From assembly GCA_964486335.1 (NCBI GenBank), contig CAZAMB010000005.1, forward strand, positions 100,008 through 164,007: a stretch of DNA of 64,000 bases. Reading direction: 5' to 3'. This document shows, piece by piece, positions 44,056 through 60,288 of the stretch. The stretch's first letter is position 1, and the number at the start of each line of letters is the position of its first letter. Both the position numbers and the translations under genes were made by a program. This DNA comes from an uncultured Phycisphaera sp. (GTDB lineage: Bacteria > Planctomycetota > Phycisphaerae > UBA1845). The notes below the pieces were generated by a model. It saw only the letters and a list, made by a program, of their open reading frames with translations, did no database searches and was not told where the DNA came from.

Positions 44056-45465
44056 GTGCCATCGAAAAGTGTTTGGCTGAGGTTTTTCTGTGAAGGCCGT
44101 TGCCTTTCGAGGGCCGCGCTGGCGCGGTCGCTTGCGGACCAAGGCGTATCGGTCGTGGATCCTTTGTCAGAGCGCGAGTCCGGCCCCGGAATTGTCGTAT
44201 TCCAAATTGTTAATTCCGAGCTCTGTGAGCTGATGTCCAAAGTCTCATGTTGTGGTTCGGAACGAGTGCTCGCTTTGGCCGATACTCCATCTGTACTTAA
44301 AAAAGGAGACGTTTGGCGCCTTTTGCACGCCGGCGCGGCGGATGTATTTGATTGGGTGGAATCGGCCAATCCGGCACGGGAGATCGCGATCCGGTTGACA
44401 CGTTGGACCGAGGTCGACGAAATTGTCAAATCATCTCTGGTTCGGGAAAACCTGATTGGACATAGTCGAATTTGGAACGACCTCCTTCGACAAATCGTCG
44501 AAGTAGCGCGATTTTCCGAAGCCTCGATTCTGATAACAGGAGAGAGTGGAACCGGTAAGGAATTGATTGCCCGTTTGATCCATACACTCGATGCCCGGCC
44601 AGACAAAGGTGAACTCGTCGTGCTCGACTGCACAACGATTGTACCGGAACTCGCTGGAAGCGAATTCTTTGGTCACGAGCGTGGGGCCTTTACCGGAGCG
44701 ATTGTCGCACGTGATGGCGCCTTCGCGCTGGCGAACGGCGGCACGCTTTTCCTCGACGAAGTCGGAGACCTACCACGGACGTTGCAGGCGCAGTTGCTTC
44801 GCGTGATACAGGAACACACCTATAAACGTGTAGGAGGCAACCAATGGTGCCAGTCGCATTTTCGATTGTTGTGTGCCACGAACAAGGACTTGACGGTTGA
44901 GGTGAAGGAAGGGCGATTTCGCGCCGACTTGTACTACCGAATTGCAGATTGGACGATTCGATTGCCCCCACTTCGTGACCGTACCGAGGACATTCCCCTG
45001 TTGGCTCGACACTTCATCCAAGCCCATGGCCACCATCGGAGCGATTTCAATTCCGAAGTGACCGAGTATCTGTTGTCTCGGGACTACCCGGGAAACGTTC
45101 GCGATCTGAAACAAGTGGTGGCGCGAATGAGCCATCGACACGTTGGCCAGGGCGAAATCACCGTCGGAGCGATCCCGCCCACGGACCGGCCTCAGGCGGA
45201 GAGTCCGTTGGATAGATGGAGCGACAGAGTGTTCGAACTACCGGTTCGACACTCTCTGGCAGTTGGCGTGGGACTGAAGGAAATCGGCCGAATTGCCGAG
45301 GAGACCGCCGTTCAGATCGCTCTCGCGGAAGAAGGCGGAAATCTGCAGCGAGCCGCTCGACGATTGAAAGTGTCGGATCGCGCCTTGCAGCTCCGACAAG
45401 CCAACGGACGAGGACCCAAGGAAGCGCCCAGCGACCCCGTCATCGAGGGACGGACGCCTGCGTAG
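44056..45465 (+). CDS. Sigma-54-dependent transcriptional activator (bacterial enhancer-binding protein)
   Basis: 469 aa with a GTG start. The AAA+ core has GESGTGKE (Walker A), GGTLFLDEVG (Walker B) and an intact GAFTGA loop (ERGAFTGA). The C-terminal Fis-type HTH is GNLQRAARRLKVSDRALQLR. The N-terminal ~140 aa sensor domain is not assignable by eye. Confidence 0.9.
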   Translation: MPSKSVWLRFFCEGRCLSRAALARSLADQGVSVVDPLSERESGPGIVVFQIVNSELCELMSKVSCCGSERVLALADTPSVLKKGDVWRLLHAGAADVFDWVESANPAREIAIRLTRWTEVDEIVKSSLVRENLIGHSRIWNDLLRQIVEVARFSEASILITGESGTGKELIARLIHTLDARPDKGELVVLDCTTIVPELAGSEFFGHERGAFTGAIVARDGAFALANGGTLFLDEVGDLPRTLQAQLLRVIQEHTYKRVGGNQWCQSHFRLLCATNKDLTVEVKEGRFRADLYYRIADWTIRLPPLRDRTEDIPLLARHFIQAHGHHRSDFNSEVTEYLLSRDYPGNVRDLKQVVARMSHRHVGQGEITVGAIPPTDRPQAESPLDRWSDRVFELPVRHSLAVGVGLKEIGRIAEETAVQIALAEEGGNLQRAARRLKVSDRALQLRQANGRGPKEAPSDPVIEGRTPA

Positions 45466-46282
45466 CCGGCGAAGGTTGGAGCCATGGCTCATTTGGCTCG
45501 ACCATCGGTCTGGAGGGCTTGGCGCCAAAGTGAACGGAACCGACGGGGTTTCGCGAGACTTGGGAAATGAGCCTCAGGATATTCCCGCCGAGAACAAGTC
45601 GCGCGTACTGGGGCGACATGCCAAGCGCTCGAACCTTGGCCAACTCGACGCCAGGATGCAACCAAGGACCGTCGGAACCAAACAGAATTTTTCTTGCGCC
45701 GGCACGATGAAGCGCTTCTTCGAGCAGATCGAACCTTCTTACACCGGACGTATCGGTATGGACATTGGGGTAACGAGTCAGTATGTCCAGGAACGCTCGC
45801 TGGGCGCGCCAGTCGTCTGCGAAGCTGCCCAGATGCGGGATAATGAAATTGACGCCGGCGTATTCCGAAGCGATCAACTCTACCTGCGAGACCTCGCCCA
45901 TCACATCGTAGAGGATGGGCAATGACCAGCGTTTCGCGGCTGCGCAAACCTCTCTTGTGATGGAAGCGTTGTACCGATGGACCTTGATTCCGCGAAATCC
46001 ATGCACGTGCACCGCCTCGTCGATCATCGCCTGCATTCGACCCCGGTCGGCATGTGGGTGGACGAAGGCAAAGCCGATAAAACGACCATTGGATTGAGCG
46101 ACAATTCTCGCCACTTCGCGGTTGGCGGTTCGGTAGTCGGAATGAAACGCAGGGAAGAGTACAGTTCGGCGAATCCCGGCCGCGTCGGCCCGAGCAATGT
46201 ACTTCCCAAGCGGCGCAGCGGTGTCCCAGGGACCCGTCAATCCGTCTCCGCGACCGGCATGGCAATGGCAGTCAATGATCAT
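45440..46282 (-). CDS. Amidohydrolase_2-type (TIM-barrel metal-dependent) hydrolase
   Basis: 280 aa. MIIDCHCH starts the protein, with IPHLG and ILFGSDGPW further on. It is the last gene of the island operon. Its 3' end overlaps the EBP gene 3' end by 26 nt (convergent). Confidence 0.82.
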   Translation of the reverse strand: MIIDCHCHAGRGDGLTGPWDTAAPLGKYIARADAAGIRRTVLFPAFHSDYRTANREVARIVAQSNGRFIGFAFVHPHADRGRMQAMIDEAVHVHGFRGIKVHRYNASITREVCAAAKRWSLPILYDVMGEVSQVELIASEYAGVNFIIPHLGSFADDWRAQRAFLDILTRYPNVHTDTSGVRRFDLLEEALHRAGARKILFGSDGPWLHPGVELAKVRALGMSPQYARLVLGGNILRLISQVSRNPVGSVHFGAKPSRPMVEPNEPWLQPSPATQASVPR

Positions 46283-46442: not shown

Positions 46443-47447
46443 TTATAGAATCGCACCCGATCGAGATTTGAACCAGGGGGTCAACCGTCTGGCGCCGTCC
46501 AGATTCAGTTCGGTGTGAATGTGATTCGTATGCGGACTAGGGCCAGCATAGTTTCCGTCCTTTCGGCCACTCCGTGAACCATTCCATTTGATACGATTCC
46601 AAATAACGAACTGAATTCCGATGGCCGAAGCATTTTGTACAAGCCAGTTCGCTATCGGATCTCCGACGGCGGAGTTTGCTTGGTGATCTATTTCGCGAAT
46701 CATGATGTCGAGAGCGCGCCCCACCCCGTGAACGGAGGTTTCTGACGGAGTTGCTGAATTAAATCGACATGCATAACCACCGACGGAATCAACGCCTGGA
46801 AACGTCCTTCGTATATAGGTTCCCAGTTCGGCCGCGCCAGGTGTAAACGTGCCGCTGCAATTGCGTCCATTGGCCCACGGTGGAGGACTATCATAGCGAA
46901 CAAACTGTGCTTCGCCGGCAGCGCGAACGTCGGCGGGTAGCACCCATTTCTCGCTCGAAATCGACGGGCTCGGAGAATCCGGCATACTTCCCGTGAGTCG
47001 CTCCCAGGTCCGTCTGCCGACAATGCCGTCAACCGTCAAGCCGTTCGCTCGCTGAAATGTCAGTACCGCCGCTCTCGTAAGGGGACCGAAGGCCCCATCC
47101 TCAGAAAGGCGGCTTTGTCCGGGCGCGGCGTTAGTCGCAATCCAAGCATTAAGTCGTCTTTGCAATTCGATGACAGCCGCTCCGCGCGAACCGGTTCGCA
47201 GCGTTGGCCAAGTTGGTGACTCGTTGAGAATCTCGTCGAACGATAACTCGTCAAGACCAAGTTCATGACCAGGGGACTGCTCAATTTGAAGTACACCGGG
47301 CAAGATCTCATCCAGCTCGGTTGAAAATGGCGATTGATGATCCAGCGGCAGGATGATGTTGCGGCCATGTCGAAACCAGCGGCCGCCTCGTTTTGCACGC
47401 AGGCCACTTGTTTTTCTTACAGAAGATGATGCGCGCAGTCTGTTCAT
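46443..47447 (-). CDS. Peptidoglycan-binding-domain protein with C-terminal LAS-like metallopeptidase-type motifs
   Basis: Start at the ATG at 47447, which makes an ATGA overlap with the upstream stop. The PG_binding_1 repeat is GSRGAAVIELQRRLN...DGAFGPLTRAAVLTFQRANGLTVDGIVGRRTWERL. The C-terminal part has SVHGVGRALDI and HTNHIHTE. The catalytic assignment is inference. Confidence 0.75.
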   Translation of the reverse strand: MNRLRASSSVRKTSGLRAKRGGRWFRHGRNIILPLDHQSPFSTELDEILPGVLQIEQSPGHELGLDELSFDEILNESPTWPTLRTGSRGAAVIELQRRLNAWIATNAAPGQSRLSEDGAFGPLTRAAVLTFQRANGLTVDGIVGRRTWERLTGSMPDSPSPSISSEKWVLPADVRAAGEAQFVRYDSPPPWANGRNCSGTFTPGAAELGTYIRRTFPGVDSVGGYACRFNSATPSETSVHGVGRALDIMIREIDHQANSAVGDPIANWLVQNASAIGIQFVIWNRIKWNGSRSGRKDGNYAGPSPHTNHIHTELNLDGARRLTPWFKSRSGAIL

Positions 47448-48604
47448 GACCTGACTCCTTGGTTTAGGGACAAAGTGGAACCGTAAGATTCCCCGGCGGC
47501 TGAATTCTCGAGTTTCAATTGGCGTGCGCGCGCCAGCGCTTGGCACGCTGAACTGATGTCAATTGGGTTGTGATCGGCGTTGATCAGAAAGGCGATGTTT
47601 GCCCGTGCAGGTCTTTGAACCGAAAGCAGTACCGTTTGGACCCCCATACCCCTAAGCCGACCGGTCATTCTCCTTGCTTCGCCTGACGACCGAAACGACA
47701 ATATCTGCACAGGGAAGAGTCCCGGAGATGGCGTGAATCCTGCCGATCGTGTTCCGGCACGAAATCGTCGTACATTGGAGAGGAGCTGCGATCGTCGTGA
47801 GTTGCCGATGCGCTCGTTGGCCGTCAGCGCGTTCGTGGCAGCCCTGATGGACGCCTGGGAAGGCGGACTGCAATGAACTCGAGTCTCGCTGCGCGTTGCA
47901 AACTGCTCGACAATGTCACCGCGACTCGACAGAGCGGCCACCGGCGCTCCGAATCCCTTGGCCAGGGAACTGATCAAGACCAATTCCTTCGCGCGAACGC
48001 CCCACCACTGGGAGCTTCCGCCTCCGCCTAGCCCATACGGCATTGTTCGCGTCGGTCGCGCGCCAAGAACGCCAAGCGCTTGAGTGTCATCTACGACAAC
48101 AAGACCCTTCACGGCTCGCATCTGACGAAGATAGCTTGTAAGAGGTGCAACCCGTCCGCATCGCATACAGGAACCATCAACGACAACCACCGGACGTGAT
48201 GCAGGCCCGCCAGCATCCTGAAGTGATCGACGCAATGACGAAGGGCAATAGTGCCGAAACGTCTGGACAGACGCGCCGCGCGCCGCCGCCCGTTCCAGTC
48301 CCCAGCGTCCGATGGGATAAAGTCCGCTATCCATGAAAAACCGTGCCCCTTCGTCGGCGAGCATGCCGAGGAAGTCCCAAAACAAGTGTAACGTCGAAGT
48401 TCCAAGCAAAGCCGCTTCACAGCCTTGCAGGTCGGCCAACAATTGGGCGACCCGCTTCGCCTCAGCTGACTCATCAAGTGCCGCAGGTCGGCCGGTCGTC
48501 AACTGCTCCCACGATCCCAGCGCCGAACTCGGGTGCCGCATGCCCAGATACTGGGCCGAGGTAAAGTCAAGCACTGGATGATTTCCGTCAACGACCTCTG
48601 CCAC
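47444..48604 (-). CDS. PLP-dependent class I/II aminotransferase-fold enzyme, alpha-oxoamine-synthase-like
   Basis: 386 aa. LDFTSAQYLGM, VVDDTQALGVLG and SLAKGFGAPVA (putative PLP Lys) parallel the AONS/serine-palmitoyltransferase motifs. Confidence 0.7.
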   Translation of the reverse strand: MAEVVDGNHPVLDFTSAQYLGMRHPSSALGSWEQLTTGRPAALDESAEAKRVAQLLADLQGCEAALLGTSTLHLFWDFLGMLADEGARFFMDSGLYPIGRWGLERAAARGASVQTFRHYCPSSLRRSLQDAGGPASRPVVVVDGSCMRCGRVAPLTSYLRQMRAVKGLVVVDDTQALGVLGARPTRTMPYGLGGGGSSQWWGVRAKELVLISSLAKGFGAPVAALSSRGDIVEQFATRSETRVHCSPPSQASIRAATNALTANERIGNSRRSQLLSNVRRFRAGTRSAGFTPSPGLFPVQILSFRSSGEARRMTGRLRGMGVQTVLLSVQRPARANIAFLINADHNPIDISSACQALARARQLKLENSAAGESYGSTLSLNQGVRS

Positions 48605-50261
48605 CCGTCAATTGCGATTGCAGCCGTTGGCTTAATAGCACTGAAGGCATGGTCGCATTCACCATTCCACTCACCGGCTGAGCTGTCAGATCAACACCCG
48701 TAGCCGCGCGGTAAGCATGGAGGTAACCCTGAATTTCCGGCTTCCAATATCGAGCCCATGTTCGAGCGTGTTCCTGGTCTGTTAGGACATTCCAGTTTCC
48801 ATACCGGATCGAGAGCAGAATCCGTTCTCCGAGGACGCCCAAATCGCGAAAATGGGTGACCGTTACGTCGCTCCAACCCTGAACTCGTTTCATCGCGTCC
48901 ACGCGGCCCATCCACGGTTCCGCATAGGGCACCATGATCCGAGTGCCGAGGAATTCGCGCATTTCGGGTCGGGACAACAACCACTGCTGCATCATCATCT
49001 CGACTCGCGCTGTCCACGGCAGATCCCCGAATTGATTGTGCGCCCCTTGGGCAAGCAGCAAATGGACTTCCTTTAGCGCGTTGAGAAGAGGGAACCCGTC
49101 GGAAATCACGGTCGTGTCCGAGTCTTCCTGAAAAAACACGGAGCTGCGATACAAAAGATCGTGAAATGCTTCGAGAAACTTTGAACGGTTGTCGGCCGGA
49201 CGCATGGTCGAAACGGCCTTGCCCGCGAGCGCCAGTCCGTAGTGGTGGCTATACTCATAGGCTCGGCGAGGAACCGTGAGGCGATGGACTTCGTCCTGGA
49301 TGTACCCCCAAAGAAAGTTGTTGAGTGGCCTCAGCGGATCGATTTCCAACTCGGCCAATGGGTCGCGACCTGCGCCGCGCCGTTTGTTCTGGAATCGAAG
49401 GCTGATGGCGTTCAATGTTTGCGCCAACATCCCTTCTTCGTGCCAATACGACCAGATCAGTTCCAGCAGGCATGGACAAGAAGATTTCGCGCAGAGGATT
49501 TTCCCGTCACAGAAGGCCGAGGTAGCCGTCTGTTCTCGCCAATTCTCACCGAAGGCAGCGGTTAGAATCGTGTTCAAGTAATTGATATCCTTCGTTCGCA
49601 AGTAACTCGCCAGCTTGTCGCTAATGTCCTTCAGGGTGCCGCCCGGCAATGGGAAGTCATCCTCCAGACGTTTGACTTCAGATCCGGGGTCATCCTTTTC
49701 ACCCCATCCTTCGGTCTCGGCGCATGCGCATGGATCGCAATTACTCTTTTCACCTGCTTCTTGTTGTTTCTGAGCAGATGCGCCTTCGCGTGTTGTCGAT
49801 TCCGGATCGTCGGGTTTACGATAACAGGGATCAGGCTTTTTCTTTTCGGGGTCCAGAAACTCATCAGGATGCATTCCCTTTTGAAACGGCCCGCATGTGC
49901 AGCCGCAGCGGATGAGCAAAAACGTCTCCGTGGCCGTCTTCAAAAGGTCGTAGGCGTCCATGCCGTGGATGCAGGGTTCCTTGCTCAAACTTTCTCGCAG
50001 CCTTCGTTCCGGGCAGCAGTCGGGATCTTTGGTGTCTTTGTCGCAGAGCACTCGATCAATAAACTTCGCGTATTCCGAGAACGATGTCCGTTCCGAAGCA
50101 GTCCGAATCCACATCCATAACGGATACGTGTCGTCCCGTTTGAGCGGGGATCTCGAAAGCGAAAAGGTGCCGGACGCCGGCTTGGCAAAATCGCCAGAAA
50201 CACTTACCTTGACTCCCTTCGCCAGCTCTTTACCTTCAACAATAATCTTTCCTTCAGCCAT
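48588..50261 (-). CDS. Hypothetical 557-aa protein, Cys-rich N-terminal half, no recognisable family
   Basis: This long ORF is in operon context. About 15 Cys residues lie in clusters (DCCPE, CGCTCG, CDPCAC, CAKSSCPC), all in the N-terminal half. The C-terminal ~285 aa contain no Cys. Confidence 0.8.
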   Translation of the reverse strand: MAEGKIIVEGKELAKGVKVSVSGDFAKPASGTFSLSRSPLKRDDTYPLWMWIRTASERTSFSEYAKFIDRVLCDKDTKDPDCCPERRLRESLSKEPCIHGMDAYDLLKTATETFLLIRCGCTCGPFQKGMHPDEFLDPEKKKPDPCYRKPDDPESTTREGASAQKQQEAGEKSNCDPCACAETEGWGEKDDPGSEVKRLEDDFPLPGGTLKDISDKLASYLRTKDINYLNTILTAAFGENWREQTATSAFCDGKILCAKSSCPCLLELIWSYWHEEGMLAQTLNAISLRFQNKRRGAGRDPLAELEIDPLRPLNNFLWGYIQDEVHRLTVPRRAYEYSHHYGLALAGKAVSTMRPADNRSKFLEAFHDLLYRSSVFFQEDSDTTVISDGFPLLNALKEVHLLLAQGAHNQFGDLPWTARVEMMMQQWLLSRPEMREFLGTRIMVPYAEPWMGRVDAMKRVQGWSDVTVTHFRDLGVLGERILLSIRYGNWNVLTDQEHARTWARYWKPEIQGYLHAYRAATGVDLTAQPVSGMVNATMPSVLLSQRLQSQLTGGRGR

Positions 50262-50285: not shown

Positions 50286-51614
50286 CTATGAGGCCCGTGC
50301 GATTGTTTTCTGTGTTCGACCGACGAAAACCCTGCTCCGCGAACAACGGACACAAGCGCCAAACGTGCTTCGAAGCGCCCAATGACTGAGCAATCCACTC
50401 ACGAGGCGACTCTCTTCAACCGGATTGAGGACGCCGTACGCTTTTGCTTGTCCCAATACGGCGAACACAAGCGACTCCGGAGCGGCCCGCAACTGTTCTG
50501 GAAATCGTCGCCAGGTCTGAAAGAGTCTCATTAGGCGATGTGGTTGCCGCTCCTCGACACCGAGGACTTCCCCCAGAGACAATCCCCTGAGAGACTTCGG
50601 TCGATGATGTGTCAACAACGCCACAAAACCAGGAATGCTTGCCTGTAACGCGTTGAATAGCGCGAAACGTCTTGGGTCAAGCTGCGTTGGCGGATAAAAC
50701 GCGTCCCACATCCTCGCGAAATGTTCCCATTGCGGATGTGGATAGAGCGCTTGTCCGACCGCACAACTGAGCTTGACCCTGATCCACGGGCTTGGGTGCG
50801 GATCGTCAAGGTTGATTCGAAAAACGAATCCACGCGGCAGACTGACTACACTCATCAATCCCATGGTGGACGTGATGCCCAACTTCGCCACGGACCAGAA
50901 GTCGGCAACAACCTCGGAAATCCACCGCTCCCAGGCCAGCCACGCAAACGCTTCTGCGCTCCCTTTCTTCCGCATTCCCAGAAGAATTGGCCGGAAGGAC
51001 GGAACCAGTTTCAGCAGTTCCGCTGCCTGATGACCGACCTCGTGGACCAAAGACGATGCGATTCCGCTGCCTACCATTCTCTCCCGCGGCACGCGGATAA
51101 TGGCAACGGGATTGCGCCCGCCCGTGGGCATCCGCGTTCGCGCCCGCCGTATCGCCGCGCCGGGTCCGCGGTCCAGGTAACAAATCACCGGCGGTTCCGA
51201 GTAGTAGCCGCCACCAAGGTGCAATGCATCGGCGGCAAACGCATCCAGTCCGGATAGCCAGATTCCCGTTTCATGTTCGCTGCGTTGAGTGATTGCATCC
51301 GCAAACAGATCAAGATCCGAAAGGACGGCGTTGAACCGCAATCGGAGGAGTACGAATCGCCGCTGCGCTTCCTCGGCGGAGGACAACCGCCCATTCGAAC
51401 CCTCAAGCCACGCCAGAAATGCAACGACTTGTTCCCGCAAATTGCGTCGCCCTTGAAGCAAGTACCCGTCGATGGCTCTTTGCGCGGTTGAGGAAATCGC
51501 CGCGGCGGTTACCGAAGTGATTTGCAGCGCGAATGGCTTCACGATAGCCAGTCGTGTCAGCAGGGCACGGGCTTCCTGCGCAAGAAAACAAGTTGTGTTG
51601 GAACGCATGGACAC
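50286..51614 (-). CDS. Hypothetical 442-aa protein with HExxH motif (putative zinc metallopeptidase)
   Basis: The only motif recognised is SSLVHEVGHQAAELL. The rest is helical-looking sequence without a family I can name. Confidence 0.75.
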   Translation of the reverse strand: MSMRSNTTCFLAQEARALLTRLAIVKPFALQITSVTAAAISSTAQRAIDGYLLQGRRNLREQVVAFLAWLEGSNGRLSSAEEAQRRFVLLRLRFNAVLSDLDLFADAITQRSEHETGIWLSGLDAFAADALHLGGGYYSEPPVICYLDRGPGAAIRRARTRMPTGGRNPVAIIRVPRERMVGSGIASSLVHEVGHQAAELLKLVPSFRPILLGMRKKGSAEAFAWLAWERWISEVVADFWSVAKLGITSTMGLMSVVSLPRGFVFRINLDDPHPSPWIRVKLSCAVGQALYPHPQWEHFARMWDAFYPPTQLDPRRFALFNALQASIPGFVALLTHHRPKSLRGLSLGEVLGVEERQPHRLMRLFQTWRRFPEQLRAAPESLVFAVLGQAKAYGVLNPVEESRLVSGLLSHWALRSTFGACVRCSRSRVFVGRTQKTIARAS

Positions 51615-51620
51615 GACTTG

Positions 51621-52289
51621 TCAAACTCCCAACAGAATGATGCGCCGACCGCGGCGAATCCAGCGACCGCTCTGCCCCGCACTCGAAGTGCTCGCCAGCC
51701 CAGTGTTCATGAGGCCTGGCGCATGACGTTGAGCCGCGGCGGCCAGGGCCGACTTTGCGACGATTCGGGGATCAGTGGTATGTGGGGATGCGGCGGCGTG
51801 CTGAGCAGCGGCGCCGGCCAAGCGAACGAATCGTCGGGCGATTTCAAATTCCTGATCTTCGCCGCTGAGGCCCTCAAATTCCAAGCCAAACAGCTTGCCG
51901 GCCGCGGATCCGGCGGCACTTCCAAGCGCCGTTCCGACACCGGGGATCGGGATGAGTGACCCCAGGGCGCCTCCGGCAATCGGCAGAACCTTCTTGGCGA
52001 TGCCTTTGAGGATTCCGCCAAGCGGACGGAAAACGCGAGGAGCGATGCGCTTAATCCCCTTCCAGGCGCGCTTGAACAATTTGCCGAGGAATTCATCGAT
52101 TTCCTGGTCGCTCGACAATGTGAGCAGTTCGGAGGCGAAATCAACTTCTTCGTCCTGCGTAAATGGTCCCTCGCCGGTCCCGAAATCTCCAAATTCTTCG
52201 AAGACTTCAAAATCGCTCGTTTCACCGCCGAAACCATCGGTTTCCCCGGTGTCTTCGAAATACGTCTGAGTCTGGTCTATGTCGTGCAT
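51621..52289 (-). CDS. Hypothetical 222-aa protein: acidic N-terminus, cationic Gly-rich segment, C-terminal GRWIRRGRRIILLGV tail
   Basis: Residues 1-69 have no Lys or Arg and about 22 Asp/Glu. Residues 70-107 have 11 Lys/Arg and no acidic residues (KLFKRAWKGIKRIAPRVFRPLGGILKGIAKKVLPIAGG). A GxxxG-rich stretch follows. It is a paralogue of 52302..53126. Confidence 0.8.
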   Translation of the reverse strand: MHDIDQTQTYFEDTGETDGFGGETSDFEVFEEFGDFGTGEGPFTQDEEVDFASELLTLSSDQEIDEFLGKLFKRAWKGIKRIAPRVFRPLGGILKGIAKKVLPIAGGALGSLIPIPGVGTALGSAAGSAAGKLFGLEFEGLSGEDQEFEIARRFVRLAGAAAQHAAASPHTTDPRIVAKSALAAAAQRHAPGLMNTGLASTSSAGQSGRWIRRGRRIILLGV

Positions 52290-52301
52290 GTGTTTCTCCT
52301 C

Positions 52302-53126
52302 TTAAATGCCAAGTGCTACGATGGTGTGTCCCGTACGCATCCACCTGCCGTTACCGGGCCGATGAATGGCATAACTGATCCTTGATTCATCCTCGGTTTG
52401 GTCTTCCTCAGGTGCGACAGGAGGCTTGTTGCTTATGCCGAAACCTTGGTCGATCGAATCCTGAATGACGCTTCCACAATGTTGGGCACATGCCGCACAA
52501 TCGCACTCGATTGGCTCCACGGGTTCCGGCGCGACACCGGCGGCCGAACGTGCCCCACCATTGCTCGATGACGACGGAAAAGAAGATGGCATGGACGTTT
52601 GCGCAGGCCGTGTTCCGCTGTCGGTCGGAGGAAATTCCGGCCCATGGGATGGCTTTCCTGTGCGATGCCGCCATCTCCGTTTGCGTCGAAGCTGCTCGCG
52701 AAGAACGCGGAGTGCTGTTCTAATGGCAGGCAAAGCAGCATTTCTCGCGTGTTGTGTACGAGACAGCCGTCTCGCCAACCGACCTGCCAATCGTCCAAAC
52801 CGAACAGCTCGACGTGCTCTCTCAAGGTCCTCTTCATCCGTTTCGAACCCCTCAAGACTGCCATCAATGAACTCCCGAAATTGAGCGTTCAAAGACTCTG
52901 ACGGATCGCCCATGGGCGACGACGCGATGAAGGGTACCCGGCGAATGCCATCAATTGCGCTCTGTACTTGCGGCGTGATGAACTTGGCCAGACTATTCGT
53001 CGTTGAAGTGAGTGACTCCCCGCATTTGCCTAATGTCGCGAGCACAGCTCTGGCAATCTCGTTGCCACTGACCGCTCCTAGCAGGTCAATTGCCAGTTCT
53101 TCTTCGTTTTTTTGGCGATCGTACAT
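52302..53126 (-). CDS. Hypothetical 274-aa paralogue of 51621..52289 (tail NGRWMRTGHTIVALGI)
   Basis: It shares three segments with the downstream gene. Start region: EEELAIDLLGAVSGNE vs EVDFASELLTLSSDQE. Middle: EEDLERARRAVRFGRLAG vs DQEFEIARRFVRLAGAAA. C-terminal tail as in the call. The start is moved to Met 53126 because a sigma-54 promoter lies inside the 5' extension of ORF 52302..53291. Confidence 0.7.
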   Translation of the reverse strand: MYDRQKNEEELAIDLLGAVSGNEIARAVLATLGKCGESLTSTTNSLAKFITPQVQSAIDGIRRVPFIASSPMGDPSESLNAQFREFIDGSLEGFETDEEDLERARRAVRFGRLAGRLARRLSRTQHARNAALPAIRTALRVLREQLRRKRRWRHRTGKPSHGPEFPPTDSGTRPAQTSMPSSFPSSSSNGGARSAAGVAPEPVEPIECDCAACAQHCGSVIQDSIDQGFGISNKPPVAPEEDQTEDESRISYAIHRPGNGRWMRTGHTIVALGI

Positions 53127-53182: not shown

Positions 53183-53198
53183 AGCAAGTTCCATGCCA
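53183..53198 (-). promoter_or_regulatory. Sigma-54 (-24/-12) promoter
   Basis: The minus strand reads TGGCATGGAACTTGCT, against the consensus TGGCAC-N5-TTGCW. The GG and GC dinucleotides are at canonical spacing. The motif lies 56 nt upstream of the ATG at 53126. An EBP with GAFTGA is encoded in the same island. Confidence 0.6.
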
Positions 53199-53227: not shown

Positions 53228-53243
53228 GCGAAGTGTACTTCGC
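53228..53243. promoter_or_regulatory. Dyad GCGAA-N6-TTCGC (candidate enhancer/UAS 1)
   Basis: GCGAAGTGTACTTCGC has 7-bp perfect arms around a 2-nt centre. It lies about 30 nt upstream of the -24 element. Confidence 0.35.
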
Positions 53244-53268: not shown

Positions 53269-53284
53269 GCGAATCGCGCTTCGC
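53269..53284. promoter_or_regulatory. Dyad GCGAA-N6-TTCGC (candidate enhancer/UAS 2)
   Basis: GCGAATCGCGCTTCGC has the same 16-nt architecture. It is 41 bp (about four helical turns) from the first dyad. Confidence 0.35.
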
Positions 53285-53566
53285 CGATCATTCTGTTCGC
53301 TGTTGTCCAGTGAACGAAACAGGCCGAGGTGTTATGGGATTCCGTGGCCTGTGGTCAATGGTATTGGATAAGGCAACGAATCACTCGTTTCGAGGTGAAT
53401 CGGACGTTTAAAGTGACGAATCCTGACTTGATCCTACTCGATTGCTCCAATGCTGGGATGAATACTCATTTAACAGATCGCAAATGGCTCTTGGAAAGAA
53501 ACGTGGAAGGGGTTTCCGCATTCTCCGTAACTCTTTGGTTTTGCGCGGTTTAGAACTCGCTGCGTT

Positions 53567-53612
53567 CATGTTGCCTACGTAAATGTCGAGGGTTCGAGTT
53601 CCTTCACCCGCT
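53567..53612 (+). pseudogene. tRNA-Gly 3' fragment (anticodon arm to 3' end), non-functional
   Basis: 41/46 identical to 42336-42381. The anticodon-stem and loop changes are not compensatory. The region 5' of it cannot form acceptor or D arms. Confidence 0.75.
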
Positions 53613-53720
53613 TTGTTTGACGCGCCGTGCCAGCGAGTGACATCGCGGTCCAACTCTTGACCCCAGCGCGAGTTACGACGACCGATTCTTGCCTTTCCCA
53701 GGTTTACATTTCATGGTCGC
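53567..53720 (+). repeat. Island direct repeat, right copy
   Basis: See 42336-42489. The offset is 11231 nt with no gaps over 154 nt. Confidence 0.85.
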
Positions 53721-53863
53721 GTTTCGAGCTGTCTAAGCGGGCGGGCGTCCCGTACAGCGGAATCCACCGCTTTATCAGCTACGACCGCGACCTGACCCTG
53801 ACAACGGCGTCACGGCTGGCCGACGTGCTGGGGCTGGAATTGCGCCCTGCAAAAGGAAAGTAG
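53627..53863 (+). CDS. Small helix-turn-helix protein (Xre/excisionase-like position)
   Basis: 78 aa from the GTG at 53627. FELSKRAGVPYSGIHRFISYDRDLTLTTASRLADVLGLEL is a typical HTH. It ends 8 nt before the integrase start. Confidence 0.55.
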   Translation: MPASDIAVQLLTPARVTTTDSCLSQVYISWSRFELSKRAGVPYSGIHRFISYDRDLTLTTASRLADVLGLELRPAKGK

Positions 53864-53870
53864 GTGCATC

Positions 53871-55340
53871 ATGCCGAGAGTATTCCGGCAAAAATACACG
53901 CAACCGACGGCAGACGGAAAACGAAAAACGCGACAAAGCGCTAAGTGGTACGTCGAGTACCGCGACGCCCAAGGCATTCGGCGTCGGGTTCCGGGGTACA
54001 CCGACAAGGGCGCGACCCAACAGCTCGCGGCGGAGTTGGAACGAAACGCGGAGCGACAGCTCGCGGGTCTGGTCGATGCCTTTGCCGATCATCGAAAGCG
54101 CCCTTTGCGGGAACACCTGAATGATTGGCACGGCGCCTTGATCGCACGCGGCGCGTCGCGCGATTATGCCGACTTGGTCAAGAGCCGAGCGACCAAGGCG
54201 CTGACAGGTTGCGGATTCGTTTTCCTTGCCGACGTATCGGCATCCGACCTGCAAGCCTATCTGAGCAGGTTGCGAAGCGACGGACTGAGCATTCAAACGG
54301 TCAATTTCTACCTGCAAGCGGTCAAGCAGTTTTTCCGCTGGATGGTTGCTGACCGACGAATGCCCGACAACCCGGTCGCGTACCTGCGCGGGGGGAATGT
54401 CCGAACGGATCGTCGCCACGATCGACGCGCACTCGACACTGATGAACTGCGATCGCTACTCGACGCTACGAAGAATGGACCGGAACGGTTTGGCATGAAG
54501 CCTGATGCGCGGGCAATGCTTTATCAGCTTGCGGTTGAAACTGGTCTGCGGGCCACCGAACTGCGAACGCTGACTTGGGATTGTCTGGACTTGGAAGGCG
54601 ACCTGCCGACGGTGACGGTCAAGGCCGGTTATAGCAAACACCGGCGAACCGATACCCTTCCTTTAAAGCCGTCTACGACGCAAACGCTGGCCCGCTGGAG
54701 CAACGAACTCGGCAACGTGGACCCAACGGCACGCCTTTTCAACATGCCGCCCAAGGCCGCGAAAATGCTCCGAGCTGATCTGGCCGACGCTGGCTTACCG
54801 TATGCCGATGCTGATGGGCGCGTGGCCGATTTTCATTCCTTGCGGCACACTTACATTTCCAATCTGGCCCGTGGCGGTGTTCATCCAAAGATCGCCCAAC
54901 AGCTTGCCCGGCATTCGACCATTACGCTGACGATGGATCGCTATTCGCACACGGTTTTGGGCGAGCTATCAGACGCACTGTCGGCCCTGCCGGAGCTGGA
55001 CGCCACGCCATTCGAGCAAGAATCGGTGAGAGCGACCGGCACCTGCGGCAACCCCCAAAAATGCTTACCGATTTCCTTACCGAAATCCTTACCGAAACGC
55101 GGTGCGCGGCGAGAGTTGTCCCATTCATCGGCGTGCAATGATCCAACGCAAACCGCGAAATTCGACCGGCAAGAAAATCCTATGAATATAGGTATTTCCT
55201 GCGCTTCCACGCGTGACGACGCGGGTGTGTTCGTGGAACAATCCCGACTGCGCCCGGCGGGATTCGAACCTGCGACCCCCGGTTTAGGAAACCGGTGCTC
55301 TATCCAACTGAGCTACGAGCGCAACAATCGGCTAGTATAA
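53871..55340 (+). CDS. Tyrosine recombinase / phage-type integrase
   Basis: 489 aa. It has an N-terminal SAM-like domain. The catalytic region has LAVETGLRATEL (Arg), HSLRHTYISNL (HxxR) and HSTITLTMDRYSH (His/Tyr). The last ~30 codons read antisense through tRNA-Arg. Confidence 0.9.
   Translation: MPRVFRQKYTQPTADGKRKTRQSAKWYVEYRDAQGIRRRVPGYTDKGATQQLAAELERNAERQLAGLVDAFADHRKRPLREHLNDWHGALIARGASRDYADLVKSRATKALTGCGFVFLADVSASDLQAYLSRLRSDGLSIQTVNFYLQAVKQFFRWMVADRRMPDNPVAYLRGGNVRTDRRHDRRALDTDELRSLLDATKNGPERFGMKPDARAMLYQLAVETGLRATELRTLTWDCLDLEGDLPTVTVKAGYSKHRRTDTLPLKPSTTQTLARWSNELGNVDPTARLFNMPPKAAKMLRADLADAGLPYADADGRVADFHSLRHTYISNLARGGVHPKIAQQLARHSTITLTMDRYSHTVLGELSDALSALPELDATPFEQESVRATGTCGNPQKCLPISLPKSLPKRGARRELSHSSACNDPTQTAKFDRQENPMNIGISCASTRDDAGVFVEQSRLRPAGFEPATPGLGNRCSIQLSYERNNRLV
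55249..55322 (-). tRNA. tRNA-Arg (anticodon CCT)
   Basis: The minus strand reads GCGCTCG-TA-GCTC-AGTTGGATA-GAGC-A-CCGGT-TTCCTAA-ACCGG-GGGTC-GCAGG-TTCGAAT-CCCGC-CGGGCGC-A. There is one A-C mismatch in the T-stem and one G-T pair in the acceptor stem. Confidence 0.85.
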
Positions 55341-56721: not shown

Positions 56722-56931
56722 CCTGTGAATCCGCGCTGTGCTGGCAGGGACGGCGCTTCGGCTTCACTTATGGGTCCTACGATGCGTCGAGTAGCCGGCA
56801 CATTTACGGAAACCTAGAATGGATCAGCGGGAAGCCCATTTCGGAGGTCCGGTTGCGAACTTCCCGAGTGGTCCACGAGGGTTAGATTGGCGCGAATTCT
56901 AAGATTGATATCACCGCAGGGAGAGCGAGCG

Positions 56932-57906
56932 ATGCGACTGGGGACGATGGGTCTGATTGGTCTGTTCACGATCCTCGCGGGAAAAGCCGACGGCGGACTC
57001 ATCATCACGCTCGACGCGCGGGATTCCGCGGGGATGCCATTTGCGTCGCCCGCGACGGCGGGCACAACCGCGCGAGTAGGCATCCTGCTTTCAACCGATG
57101 GTGCGGATGATCCGCTTCCCGACCTGCGCGGCCTCCAGTTCGATTTCTCGGGCACAAGTTCGAGCATTTTGGTGAATTCGTTCGCATGGTCGGTCAATGA
57201 GGATGTCTATGCATTTCGCACGACGGCGCCGCCGAATGTTTCGGCGATTACGCTGCTCTTGGCGAGTTCATCAACGCTGCTGACGTTGACGGGAACCCCG
57301 GTGCAGGTCGCGTCGGTGGACATCACGGTGAATGGAACCGGCACACTTGATGTGCGTAACACGGCCGCGCCTGACACCAACACTTCGGCCTGGTTTCGCG
57401 CCGGATTCGCGACGTCGATGGAATTCTCACTGATTCACGGAAACCTCACGGGCGGCACGCTGGACATCGCGGTTCCCGGGACGGTTGATCCCGGTCCCGT
57501 TGGTGGTGGCGGAGGCGGCGGTTCGGGAGGCGGTGATCCGGCGACAACCGATTCCGACTCCGACGGCGTGGTCGACGCCGACGATGCGTTTCCCGACGAT
57601 CCAACCGAAACGATGGACACCGACAACAACGGCGTCGGCAACAATAACGATCCCGACGACGACGGCGACGGTGTGGACGACGCAGACGATGCGTTTCCGA
57701 TCGATCCTGCGGAAACGACCGACACCGACGGCGACGGCATCGGCGACAACGCCGATCCGGATACAGGCGGAGGCATCATCAACAATCCGCCCCCCAACTC
57801 GGCGCCGCGCATGTGCGGTTTCGGCATGGTCGGCCCGACCTTGCTTTTATTTGTCAGTCTCGCCGCGGTCCGATCGCAACGGTACCGGCCGAACAGACAC
57901 GGCTGA
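56932..57906 (+). CDS. Secreted protein with thrombospondin type-3-like Ca-binding repeats and C-terminal hydrophobic anchor
   Basis: A signal peptide is present. The repeats are DSDSDGVVDADDAFPDDPTETMDTDNNGVGNNNDPDDDGDGVDDADDAFPIDPAETTDTDGDGIGDNADPD. The tail is MCGFGMVGPTLLLFVSLAAVRSQRYR. Confidence 0.75.
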   Translation: MRLGTMGLIGLFTILAGKADGGLIITLDARDSAGMPFASPATAGTTARVGILLSTDGADDPLPDLRGLQFDFSGTSSSILVNSFAWSVNEDVYAFRTTAPPNVSAITLLLASSSTLLTLTGTPVQVASVDITVNGTGTLDVRNTAAPDTNTSAWFRAGFATSMEFSLIHGNLTGGTLDIAVPGTVDPGPVGGGGGGGSGGGDPATTDSDSDGVVDADDAFPDDPTETMDTDNNGVGNNNDPDDDGDGVDDADDAFPIDPAETTDTDGDGIGDNADPDTGGGIINNPPPNSAPRMCGFGMVGPTLLLFVSLAAVRSQRYRPNRHG

Positions 57907-57936: not shown

Positions 57937-60288
57937 CTATAGTCCGCCCTGCCGCACGCGGAAATGTGCCACAGATGACCAGGTGTTGGGCGATCCGCCG
58001 GCCAAAAAGCACCACGGACCAACCGCGGAACTGCTTCCGAACGCCGGTGCGCCAATGGCGAGACAATCGTTAGGGGCCGAAAACGGAACTTGAAACCGGA
58101 TTGAATGTCCGCCCGACTCCACGACCACCCCGGCGCCGTTGCCGCGTGCCTGCGGTCTCGGCGGATCATAGGAATAAAGAAACGGCAGGCCCGCCCCACC
58201 ATCGGACGGTGAACCGTCGACTTCAAGCGTTCCGGCGGCGACATAATCACAATAAACCGTCGCGGAACCGCAACCGACGTTTACCGTCACCGTGACGAAG
58301 TCTCCGGCCGTTACTTCCGCCGGAGAGACGCTTATGCTCCCGCAGCCCGACTGGTAGGGAGCTACATCGAGTTCGTCGCATACGGGGTCAAGCTGGGCGA
58401 TCACCTCCACCGGTTCTTCCAGTTCACCCACGAGTGTTCGACTCCCATTCGCGTCTTCCAAATAAACGCTCACCGTGATCGTGTCGCGATCGCCGGCGCG
58501 AGCATTGGGATCGGATGAATAGACGATGGTCGTCAAGTGGCTTTCGACTTCGTCGCCTTCGGTGATGCCGTCGCCGAGGTGGCCGTGATCACCCGACGTG
58601 GACCAAACGTATAGTAAGGTGCCGCTTGGCGGGGATGACAGCGTCGCCGTGAAGTTCCGCGTCTCGCCGACTTCGACGCGCGTCGATTCGGGCGTGACGT
58701 GGACCGTGCGCGGCGCGGCCACGATTTCCCAACTGTCAGCCCAGCTCGACGACTGATTGTCCTTAACCACCGCGCCCAGATCGAGCGCCGCCATAGCCAA
58801 TTGAATGGCTCTCAGGAAAGTCGCACTCCTTGCGACGGCGGCAGCATTGGATTGCAGCGTTGCCAATGTGGATTGCGTGCTCAACGCCGACGGCCAGAAC
58901 TTTTGCAGCTGAATGACGATGTTGGAGGTAAAGATCTCATCGTCGGCCATGTTCCTGATGGCGACCGTGACAAAGTCAGCCGCCTGTTTGTTGGTGCGCG
59001 GTACGGCCACGCCGATTTCGAGAAGCACCGGATTGAGCGTTTCGACAAAGGCGGCCAGCGCGCCCGCCGAGGCCGATTCCATCGCGCTCAGCGGACCGCC
59101 AATGGCAACGGTCTCAAGAATCGGAACAAAGAAATCGAGCAGCACGAGCTTCCATTGCAGCGAATCGGCCTCCGCGCTCCACGCCGGCACAAAATTGGCG
59201 AACTGAGGATCCGTTGTAATGCCCGGCGTGCCGACAAAGTCGAACGAAGAACCGATCACGATCGCCTTGTAATAGGTCTTCGCATTTCCGGTTTCGTGCG
59301 TGAGTTCGATTGGCGGCAGCGTAATCGGCGCCCAGGAAGCTGAGCCGCTGAGCACTGCGCTGATGGAACTGATCAGGCTCAGCCGATAGGTCGTCGGGAC
59401 CTCCATTTCGTCCACCCGCTCGGGAGGCGTGATGTCGCGACGTGTGCCCGCGTCGTTTTCGGTGGCCGTTCGATAGACATACAGCTTGCCGCGGCGGCGA
59501 AAGTTATTGATCGCCACGATGCCTTCGCCGTCGGGGTTGTGCGCGATCTGAACGCCGCTTTGTCGAGTGCTTCCGTCGGGCGTGATCAGCAAGAGTGGGC
59601 TTACACCCGTCGATTGCATGTGCGGTCCGAGTTTGAGTTGGGCTGAGTCGTCCGCCACGGTCGTGCTGTCGCGCGGCGGTTCGGGGAACTTCGTTGCTTC
59701 ATGCGCTGCGTCGAGAGCTGCCAGCACCGTCTCGTCGCCATCTTGAAGAGCCCCCGCGTCGGCGCCCAGCGCCGCCTCGATGGCGTCCGTCAGGTCCGCC
59801 ACTGCCTGTGTCTGATCAAGCAGGTCGAGCACGTTCGATAGCGAATCGGGAAAGATCGTCCAGCCCCCATTGGCGAAGTAAAGCAGCGCCAGCGCCGTTG
59901 TTCTTGAGTTAATGACGTTGGGCACCGCGTGATCGGGATTGGCAAACCCCATCAGGATCAACCGTCCGGTTCCATCCACGACCTGCACGAACGAGGGCGT
60001 ACGTAACCGGACACTCAGCGAAAATGCCCCATCCGCCGACGGCGTCGCCGTCGAATCCGATGACCGTACGCGCAGCGTCGTCGGATCGATGGTCATGCCA
60101 ACCGGCAGCGAGACCGTGCCAACCAGCATCTTCGGCTCGTCCAAGACGATCGAGGGAGGCCGCTCGATGGTCGGCTCGTCGCCACCGCCGTTGCCATTGC
60201 CGCCTCCGCCGCCCGGCGCTGCCGGGCAACCGGGAATCAACGCCAACATCATCAGCACCAACCACCCGCAGCGGCAAGACGCATTCAT
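57937..60288 (-). CDS. Large (783 aa) putative lipoprotein, no recognisable family
   Basis: The N-terminus MNASCRCGWLVLMMLALIPGC is lipobox-like and is followed by a Gly-rich linker. Long uninterrupted ORF. Confidence 0.75.
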   Translation of the reverse strand: MNASCRCGWLVLMMLALIPGCPAAPGGGGGNGNGGGDEPTIERPPSIVLDEPKMLVGTVSLPVGMTIDPTTLRVRSSDSTATPSADGAFSLSVRLRTPSFVQVVDGTGRLILMGFANPDHAVPNVINSRTTALALLYFANGGWTIFPDSLSNVLDLLDQTQAVADLTDAIEAALGADAGALQDGDETVLAALDAAHEATKFPEPPRDSTTVADDSAQLKLGPHMQSTGVSPLLLITPDGSTRQSGVQIAHNPDGEGIVAINNFRRRGKLYVYRTATENDAGTRRDITPPERVDEMEVPTTYRLSLISSISAVLSGSASWAPITLPPIELTHETGNAKTYYKAIVIGSSFDFVGTPGITTDPQFANFVPAWSAEADSLQWKLVLLDFFVPILETVAIGGPLSAMESASAGALAAFVETLNPVLLEIGVAVPRTNKQAADFVTVAIRNMADDEIFTSNIVIQLQKFWPSALSTQSTLATLQSNAAAVARSATFLRAIQLAMAALDLGAVVKDNQSSSWADSWEIVAAPRTVHVTPESTRVEVGETRNFTATLSSPPSGTLLYVWSTSGDHGHLGDGITEGDEVESHLTTIVYSSDPNARAGDRDTITVSVYLEDANGSRTLVGELEEPVEVIAQLDPVCDELDVAPYQSGCGSISVSPAEVTAGDFVTVTVNVGCGSATVYCDYVAAGTLEVDGSPSDGGAGLPFLYSYDPPRPQARGNGAGVVVESGGHSIRFQVPFSAPNDCLAIGAPAFGSSSAVGPWCFLAGGSPNTWSSVAHFRVRQGGL

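Follow-up and report, generated by a model that had tools for sequence, protein, structure and literature searches.

A conserved cassette of C-terminally tailed proteins, a metalloprotease-like protein and cell-wall hydrolases with a predicted sigma-54 promoter in an uncultured Phycisphaera

The 64,000-nucleotide stretch of DNA analyzed here, referred to below as the window, derives from an uncultured Phycisphaera sp. (contig CAZAMB010000005.1, positions 100,008 to 164,007) and carries on its minus strand a cassette of seven genes, A to G, which begins with two adjacent genes whose products end in a similar conserved tail and are termed tail proteins. These two genes are located as follows.

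52302..53126, minus strand: gene A, a divergent tail protein of 274 amino acids (aa) that lacks a glycine zipper, has a CDCxxCxxxC cluster as well as an Arg-rich helix, and ends in the tail NGRWMRTGHTIVALGI (tail codons 52305..52352)
51621..52289, minus strand: gene B, a canonical member of the family, 222 aa, with the tail SGRWIRRGRRIILLGV (tail codons 51624..51671)

The B protein consists, in order, of a MHDID N-terminus, an acidic region, ELDxFLG, a cationic amphipathic helix, a glycine zipper, EDQEFExARRFVRLAG, HAPGL and the tail, and a strong ribosome-binding site, GAGGAG, lies upstream of its gene. The charge counts given for B in a first-pass annotation of this DNA were exact: residues 1-69 contain 22 Asp/Glu and no Lys/Arg, and residues 70-107 contain 11 Lys/Arg and no Asp/Glu. 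The other features listed there are also present in the sequence, namely the glycine-rich GxxxG stretch of B (GGALGSLIPIPGVGTALGSAAGSAAG, after the cationic segment) and the Arg-rich stretch (17 Lys/Arg in residues 95-150) and ECDCAACAQHC cluster (Cys 208, 210, 213 and 217) of A. In addition, the three motifs reported as common to A and B, EEMELAAELLSVSSEEELDQFLGK, EDQEFEVARRFVRLAG and the tail, correspond to blocks that are conserved throughout the family.

The ATG at 53126 is supported as the start of A, rather than the start of a 329-aa open reading frame (ORF); the longer reading is unlikely because the predicted sigma-54 promoter and two palindromes described below fall within the extension. 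The GC content by codon position is atypical in the A region (0.61/0.54/0.52), since the sequence is rich in Arg, Pro and Ser, and homologues at the protein level in its frame identify A as the real gene. In another copy of the contig (L085, 3669..4100, equivalent to about 52433..52867 of the window), the automatic gene call is a 143-aa ORF in a different frame instead of A. Genes of the A type may be missed by public annotations.

To place these proteins, the window was compared with 82 related loci. The B family comprises at least 1,959 clusters at 90% identity, without a Pfam domain (E <= 0.01, among the 8,000 candidates scored), and occurs in 318 of 185,579 species-level genomes from at least eight phyla, including Chloroflexota, Planctomycetota, Verrucomicrobiota, Acidobacteriota, Nitrospirota, Bacteroidota, and Beta- and Gammaproteobacteria. 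Neither A nor B has a match above threshold in Pfam, NCBIfam, PADLOC or PHROG, and sequence and profile searches of the PDB with B were empty. The earlier impression of a family spread across phyla without a characterized member was therefore borne out, as many phyla were found, and neither a database family nor a paper. The name DUF697 is merely a JGI label on some homologues and was rejected for A and B, which have no Pfam DUF697 match at E <= 0.1.

The claim that A and B are paralogues is not evident from pairwise BLASTP, in which the best match (E = 0.035) is not significant, but the family profile scores A at 47.1 bits (E = 1.3e-10), and alignment of the B family against A with hhalign gives a probability of 83% (E = 9e-6). 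Judged by these profile comparisons, A is a rare and divergent member of the B family. Its branch yielded 5 matches among 1.84e9 representatives, two of which keep both CDCxxC and the tail, and a sequence intermediate between A and B (P0363) retains the glycine zipper.

In the family alignment, the N-terminal half consists of MHDIDRTQ, a variable acidic stretch, EEMELAAELLSVSSEEELDQFLGKLFKK, a cationic stretch and GGALGSFIPIPGVGTAVG, and the C-terminal half consists of LEGMSxEDQEFEVARRFVRLAG, HAPGL, a variable linker and SGRWIRRGRxIxLLGV. The tail expression GRWxRxGxxIxLxG has 116 matches in the window and the 82 loci, of which 107 lie at the strict C-terminus; the strictly C-terminal tail pointed out in the first-pass annotation is thus a fixed module. 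Two explanations of this tail were rejected: an encapsulin-like cargo tag, as the tail is found almost exclusively on B-type proteins and not on diverse cargo, and a sortase/exosortase-type signal, as no transmembrane helix follows the motif.

The segregation of charge is similarly a conserved trait of the family. Over 82 proteins, the median net charge is -18 for the N-terminal part, +8 for the next 38 aa and +5 for the tail, and the charge of the N-terminal part is negatively correlated with that of the next 38 aa (r = -0.41). The cationic segment forms a strongly amphipathic helix with a moment (muH) of 0.85-0.91, a value reached by about 1 in 1,000 of 2,000 shuffles, and a simple moment calculation for the tail (0.71 as a helix versus 0.14 as a strand) favors an amphipathic helix over a beta-hairpin. 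The maximum 19-residue Kyte-Doolittle mean is 1.54 in B and 1.22 in A, compared with a usual transmembrane level of about 1.6. Gly-zipper_Omp (PF13488) matches residues 105-135 of B with 15.6 bits (E = 0.016), below its gathering threshold of 25 bits, and a search of A with the same model gave no match. The loci usually hold two or three tail proteins, which fall into recognizable subtypes (MHDID start, MHxxxCxCxxCR start, Cys cluster before the tail, and doubled units). Two tandem B units in one protein were observed in L002 (10733..11923) and in P0098.

The gene neighborhood was surveyed by tblastn of the window proteins against the 82 loci. B was present in all 82, C in 74, D in 72, G in 63, E in 56 and the activator gene described below in 52, and the gene order in called-gene contexts from metagenomes agrees with the cassette. 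The remaining genes of the cassette are listed below.

50286..51608, minus strand: gene C, a predicted zinc metalloprotease-like protein of 440 aa, in which HEVGHQ and Glu233 in SEVVADFW (SEIxADFW in the family) are invariant
48588..50261, minus strand: gene D, a 557-aa protein whose N-terminal part varies and is joined by a Cys-rich linker to an all-alpha, highly conserved C-terminal part of about 300 aa
47444..48604, minus strand: gene E, a divergent alpha-oxoamine-synthase-like pyridoxal phosphate (PLP) enzyme of the BioF/Kbl type, with an invariant Lys in SLAKGFG and DDxQ in place of DDxH
46443..47447, minus strand: gene F, a cell-wall hydrolase of 334 aa with PG_binding_1 and an Extensin-like_C/endolysin-type domain, without a signal peptide
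45440..46282, minus strand: gene G, an Amidohydro_2 metal-dependent hydrolase with invariant HxH and FGSDGPW (Asp)

The tail protein, C, D, G and the activator constitute a core set that is conserved across phyla; the hydrolases are not counted in it because some loci hold none. In most loci C directly follows B, or is found at another position in the cassette, and its identity across phyla is about 60-70%. Its family comprises at least 5,748 clusters, with no name other than hypothetical, and H190, E191, H194, E233 and D237 are invariant both in 32 and in 45 sequences. The arrangement HExxH...ExxAD is the signature of the M48/M56 gluzincins (HtpX, Ste24, BlaR1). Like these enzymes, C possesses an invariant HExxH and, about 39 residues on, a Glu that is likewise invariant and belongs to an ExxAD-type motif; unlike them, C is soluble and has neither a Pfam match (M48 and M56 included) nor a structural match to a solved protease. 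An AlphaFold2 model of C (pLDDT 83.8, pTM 0.86) showed no specific match among solved and viral folds and no protease fold, searches of NCBIfam, PHROG and the PDB (by sequence and profile) gave no match above threshold, and in PADLOC the matches were marginal ones to PtuA (E = 0.03-0.055). From its motifs alone, C is predicted to be a protease. A remote relative of C (27% identity over about 135 aa, E = 3e-5) was observed on plasmid pBq66S1MBa of Bradyrhizobium quebecense (L083, 33529..34950), where the neighboring genes resemble those of conflict systems and encode a patatin-like phospholipase, a DUF2252 protein, a PLD-like protein, two CHAT-domain proteins and an S8/S53 peptidase.

The D family comprises at least 5,068 clusters, and some homologues have an N-terminal CarboxypepD_reg domain. 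No family match to D was found above threshold in Pfam, NCBIfam, PADLOC or PHROG, and its structure model was poor (pLDDT 59). A weak match (E = 0.034) was observed between positions 41-206 of the D-family profile and a 299-aa 'Gp54' in the PDB (9lc0_K and three further entries, 40 chains). E scores 65.9 bits against TIGR00858, for which the cut-off is 426, and BioF structures match it at E = 2.6e-12; its PLP Lys is invariant, and the stacking His is replaced by Gln. By these matches, E is probably a distant relative of BioF/Kbl. G is 54-75% identical across phyla, mostly 60-70%.

The ATG of F overlaps the stop codon of E, and the domains of F match phage endolysin PHROGs. F occupies a variable slot between E/D and G, in which one to five different hydrolases are found per locus. 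According to a Pfam census of 113 ORFs from this slot, the most frequent domains are PG_binding_1 (39) and PG_binding_3 (24), followed by Trypsin (11), Amidase_2 (7), M20 (5-6), M74 (5) and OmpA (5), with M23, Extensin-like_C, VanY, CHAP, Muramidase, DUF2272 and GH46 represented by 1-2 ORFs each. No signal peptide was found in the slot proteins, and none of the cassette proteins of the window has a signal peptide or a transmembrane segment. Many slot proteins begin with F-[ED]-x-[EA]-P-F, followed by an acidic stretch and then by an Arg/Pro-rich cationic stretch; 31 of the 113 slot ORFs have [EA]PF among their first 35 aa, compared with 11 of 519 control ORFs. The succession of an acidic and a cationic stretch may be likened to lysostaphin-type bacteriolysins with their acidic propeptides and to engineered polycation-endolysin fusions. 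Unlike these, the slot hydrolases lack signal peptides and carry the specific FExEPF N-terminal motif.

Several loci bear on the relationship between the hydrolases and the tail proteins. In L031 (15337..17280) and L036 (9041..11014), single polypeptides of 647-657 aa combine, in this order, a FExIPF leader and a PG_binding domain, then a GIY-YIG-like segment, an entire B unit including its tail and a 150-aa acidic extension, an arrangement which argues that tail proteins and hydrolases act together. Near the N-terminus of F itself, a tail motif, GGRWFRHGRNIILPL (residues 22-36; 47384..47349), directly precedes an acidic SPF stretch, and the tail likewise stands directly before an acidic SPF stretch in a beta-lactamase-like protein of L001. 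Minimal loci without hydrolases also exist (for example L032 and L037, with B, C, D, G and the activator). No cognate immunity genes were seen beside the hydrolases in the loci surveyed.

The candidate regulatory elements of the cassette, together with the activator gene, which is convergent with G, are as follows.

53183..53198, minus strand: sigma-54 (-24/-12) promoter TGGCATGGAACTTGCT, its 3' end 56 nt upstream of the ATG of A
53228..53243, minus strand: palindrome 2, GCGAAGTACACTTCGC, a putative activator binding site
53269..53284, minus strand: palindrome 1, GCGAAGCGCGATTCGC, a putative activator binding site
44056..45465, plus strand: sigma-54-dependent activator (bacterial enhancer-binding protein, bEBP) with Sigma54_activat (1.1e-56), AAA+ domain and lid, and HTH_8

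A strict promoter pattern gave a single match in 29 of the 82 loci, against about 0.08 per locus expected by chance, and 27 of the 29 matches were on the operon strand; in the cases checked, the first tail-protein gene follows closely downstream of the promoter. The operon strand yielded no sigma-70-like promoter. The palindrome GCGAA-N6-TTCGC is present in 14 of the 27 regions upstream of these promoters, and its core, CGAA[AG]N4[CT]TTCG, in 25 of the 27 (40 sites, with a background of 0.026 per 260 nt), usually twice per region and about 40 bp apart. Except in L004 and L074, G is immediately followed downstream by the activator gene, which has the opposite orientation. The N-terminal part of the activator, about 125 aa, is receiver-like, with an unconserved phospho-acceptor position (Gln in the window). 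Its AAA+/HTH part matches the PADLOC model RtcR_PspF2 (3.9e-83), and the CARF part of this model leaves the N-terminal domain uncovered. The operon is, from its promoter, palindromes and activator, a clear member of the sigma-54 circuit class. The sigma-54 gene itself (Sigma54_CBD/DBD) was observed among the nearest flanking genes in two of the 82 loci.

In common with the PspF/PspA and RtcR circuits, the cassette combines a bEBP without a conserved phospho-acceptor, a single adjacent operon, a -24/-12 promoter and upstream palindromes; it differs from them in that its effector genes show no relationship to PspA or RtcAB and the sensor domain of its activator is unmatched by CARF or Psp models. 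This raises the hypothesis of envelope maintenance, in which amphipathic tail proteins would stabilize stressed membranes under a PspF-like activator while the hydrolases and enzymes remodel or recycle the wall. The amphipathic helices of B, the match of the activator to RtcR/PspF-type models and the presence of M20 peptidases and OmpA-like domains among the slot genes are consistent with this hypothesis. However, there is no similarity to PspA/Vipp1, housekeeping wall enzymes normally have export signals that the slot enzymes lack, and the distribution of the cassette is patchy and transfer-like, with varied flanks. We therefore consider envelope maintenance very improbable.

The surroundings of the cassette were also examined. 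Clustering of flanking ORFs revealed no recurrent family beyond the cassette, and Pfam and PADLOC censuses of 101 flanking ORFs showed no recurrent transporter and no enrichment of defence genes; ABC and C39 families were absent from the 25 most frequent Pfam families of these ORFs. The flanks consist of heterogeneous housekeeping genes, and a dedicated exporter or a defence-island context was accordingly rejected. Among the PADLOC defence models, none matched A, B or D to G, and the AAA+/HTH part of the activator gave the sole significant match.

We tentatively favor, with a confidence somewhat short of even, the reading that A and B are acid-masked, protease-licensed membrane-permeabilizing pro-proteins that would allow cytoplasmic wall hydrolases to breach the envelope. 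A cue would activate the bEBP, and the otherwise silent sigma-54 operon would be transcribed. The acidic N-terminal part (about -18) would mask the cationic amphipathic helix and glycine zipper, so that A and B would remain soluble and harmless in the cytoplasm until C, the metalloprotease-like protein, removed or released the mask, perhaps together with D and G; the invariant C-terminal tail may serve as a handle recognized by a partner or by other copies. The unmasked cationic glycine-zipper part would then damage the inner membrane from the cytoplasmic side, the hydrolases would reach the peptidoglycan and the cell would lyse, the outcome being lysis of the producer, either as altruistic death or for the release of its contents. 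The hydrolases would need such a lesion to reach the wall because they have no signal peptides and the flanks hold no recurrent transporter. The tail protein is the probable core effector because the minimal loci lack hydrolases, and in such loci killing would proceed through membrane damage alone. The absence of immunity genes fits action on self. This model thus fits four absences (of an exporter, immunity genes, signal peptides and membrane proteins) as well as the tight gating of the operon.

The first-pass annotation had likened the charge-segregated layout to that of precursors of membrane-active peptides, and this suggestion stands in part: the charge layout, the amphipathic helix and the neighboring HExxH protein agree with it, while the lack of transmembrane-level hydrophobicity in B and the absence of a protease fold in the confident model of C do not. 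Several observations weigh against the permeabilization model as a whole. No segment of B reaches transmembrane hydrophobicity (maximum 1.54). D, E and G are given no necessary role, though G and D belong to the core, and the core proteins are 50-70% identical across phyla, a degree of conservation unusually high for a conflict system. The Arg/Pro-rich stretch and FExEPF motif of the hydrolases look like addressing signals, which would be superfluous for self-lysis, and the flanks, as noted, are not enriched in defence genes.

Two known kinds of lysis or death module may be compared with the model. Holin/endolysin cassettes, including 'type 10' secretion, similarly place signal-less peptidoglycan hydrolases beside a small candidate membrane-opening protein. 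However, neither A nor B resembles holins or shows a clear transmembrane domain, the glycine zipper of B being borderline, and both have an acidic pro-region as well as the fixed tail; the cassette is chromosomal, sigma-54-driven and not found in 50,697 phage records, and it includes a protease-like protein, the approximately 550-aa protein D and two enzymes. A phage origin was rejected, as C is absent from the same records. The resemblance to bacterial gasdermins and their proteases lies in the logic only, namely a permeabilizing protein that stays inactive through a terminal peptide until a co-encoded protease licenses it. In contrast to gasdermins, A and B have no PADLOC or Pfam gasdermin match and B is helical and of low complexity; C is zincin-like and not of the caspase, trypsin or subtilisin type, and there is no defence-island context.

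An alternative hypothesis is that the cassette is an exported bacteriocin/bacteriolysin cluster, in which A and B would be long precursors with ELDxFLG(G/K) as a junction like that of double-glycine leaders; the mature cationic GxxxG peptides and the hydrolases would attack neighbors from outside, and their maturation would be the task of C, D, E and G. As in class II and two-peptide bacteriocins, adjacent paralogous genes encode proteins with a GxxxG-rich cationic core behind an anionic leader, and the polymorphic arrays of one to five hydrolases per locus, with their acidic and Arg/Pro-rich N-termini, would suit such a weapon. ELDQFLG(K/G/N/S) is conserved and followed by the cationic segment, variants with ELDQFIGG and ELDQFLGG occur, and we take the ELxxFxG(G/K) junction of the family to resemble the double-glycine ELxxIxGG; this likeness was judged by eye against the consensus LSxxELxxIxGG. 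On the other hand, A and B are four to five times longer than class II bacteriocins and have an extra conserved helical domain and the tail, no C39/ABC exporter or recurrent transporter lies in or near the cassette, and NCBIfam leader and bacteriocin models (including Nif11 and NHLP) gave no match to A or B at E <= 0.1. In addition, no immunity-gene pattern was seen, B is strongly conserved rather than diversifying, and the carriers are mostly diderm environmental bacteria. An exported weapon therefore appears unlikely.

The terminal motifs suggest a different role, in which the tail proteins would be carriers or adaptors for an unrecognized export or packaging route: the basic tail would associate with the acidic FExEPF leader, or else tail and leader would each dock on C/D. 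On this view the tail proteins would not themselves be toxins but escorts that bring cargo into vesicles, for instance, or through the membrane. The motifs are specific to their classes (the tail C-terminal in 107 of 116 matches, [EA]PF enriched in slot ORFs as given above), cargo is fused to B units, and the tail precedes the acidic SPF stretch in F and in the beta-lactamase-like protein; an ESPF motif is also present in B itself. As minimal loci hold tail proteins without cargo, and no membrane component was found except the marginal glycine zipper, a carrier function, suggested by these sequence motifs, seems distinctly unlikely. A broader proposition, which we regard as possible though on balance doubtful, is that the cassette represents an unrecognized, phylum-spanning system of protein activation or trafficking with its own addressing code (the N-terminal FExEPF leader on polymorphic hydrolase cargo and the C-terminal GRWxRRGxxIxLxG tail on glycine-zipper proteins acting as carriers or pores) and a sigma-54 signal. 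Such a system would consist almost wholly of families without annotation (the tail proteins, C and D). Its mechanism would be unrelated to the numbered secretion systems or to phage lysis modules, and the cytoplasmic enzymes would be delivered across, or released through, the envelope.

A full-text search of the literature, which included the motif strings, found no description of the cassette, and, judging by the absence of matches, we rate the cassette as not assignable to a known kind of system. Three unnamed families, the tail proteins, C and D, with the cluster numbers given above, thus form one conserved, self-contained and tightly regulated cassette. If programmed lysis or toxin release is the correct reading, the cassette would represent a new route to cell death, to the release of extracellular DNA or vesicles, or to antagonism in environmentally dominant bacteria. 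It would in that case also yield a naturally occurring set of wall hydrolases, together with new membrane-active peptides. Should the terminal motifs be addressing signals, the cassette would represent a new protein-handling pathway. The cassette is also present in cultured, transformable strains (Paraburkholderia phymatum STM815, Massilia and Janthinobacterium), in which the activator offers a simple genetic switch.

The distribution of the cassette is patchy, and the flanking contexts vary. The carriers include nitrifiers, methanotrophs, anammox bacteria and other Planctomycetota, Acidobacteriota, Chloroflexota, Verrucomicrobiota, Bacteroidota, Oxalobacteraceae and rhizobial megaplasmids; the cassette was found on megaplasmids of Rhizobium, Ensifer and P. 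phymatum STM815. The B-like protein of P. phymatum STM815 ends in KGTWVRRGRHIIVYNAY, and its acidic region carries a (GEYQ)n repeat. In this strain the cassette is situated at about 1.55 Mb on pBPHY01. Directly upstream of it (L084, 7756..9840), a 694-aa ORF was observed whose N-terminal half is that of a P-loop ATPase (GPNGSGKSS) and which resembles a defence ATPase of the OLD/ABC type.

In the window, a tyrosine integrase gene (53871..~55250, plus strand) abuts tRNA-Arg(CCT) (55248..55323, minus strand) and adjoins the promoter region of the cassette. An integrative island was rejected, as no repeat of at least 13 nt of the tRNA region was found in the window and an integrase match was present in 1 of the 82 loci, and this adjacency is treated as incidental. 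Two small ORFs lie between the promoter region and the integrase gene, at 53408..53653 (minus strand) and 53627..53863 (plus strand), the latter HTH-like by eye. Farther along, a 339-aa ORF (56887..57906, plus strand) contains Asp-rich repeats (DxDxDGxxDxxD-like) that are thrombospondin-type-3-like by eye, and its C-terminus, a hydrophobic stretch followed by basic residues, may be a sorting signal. It is followed at 57937..60288 on the minus strand by a gene for a 783-aa protein with a lipoprotein-like N-terminus.

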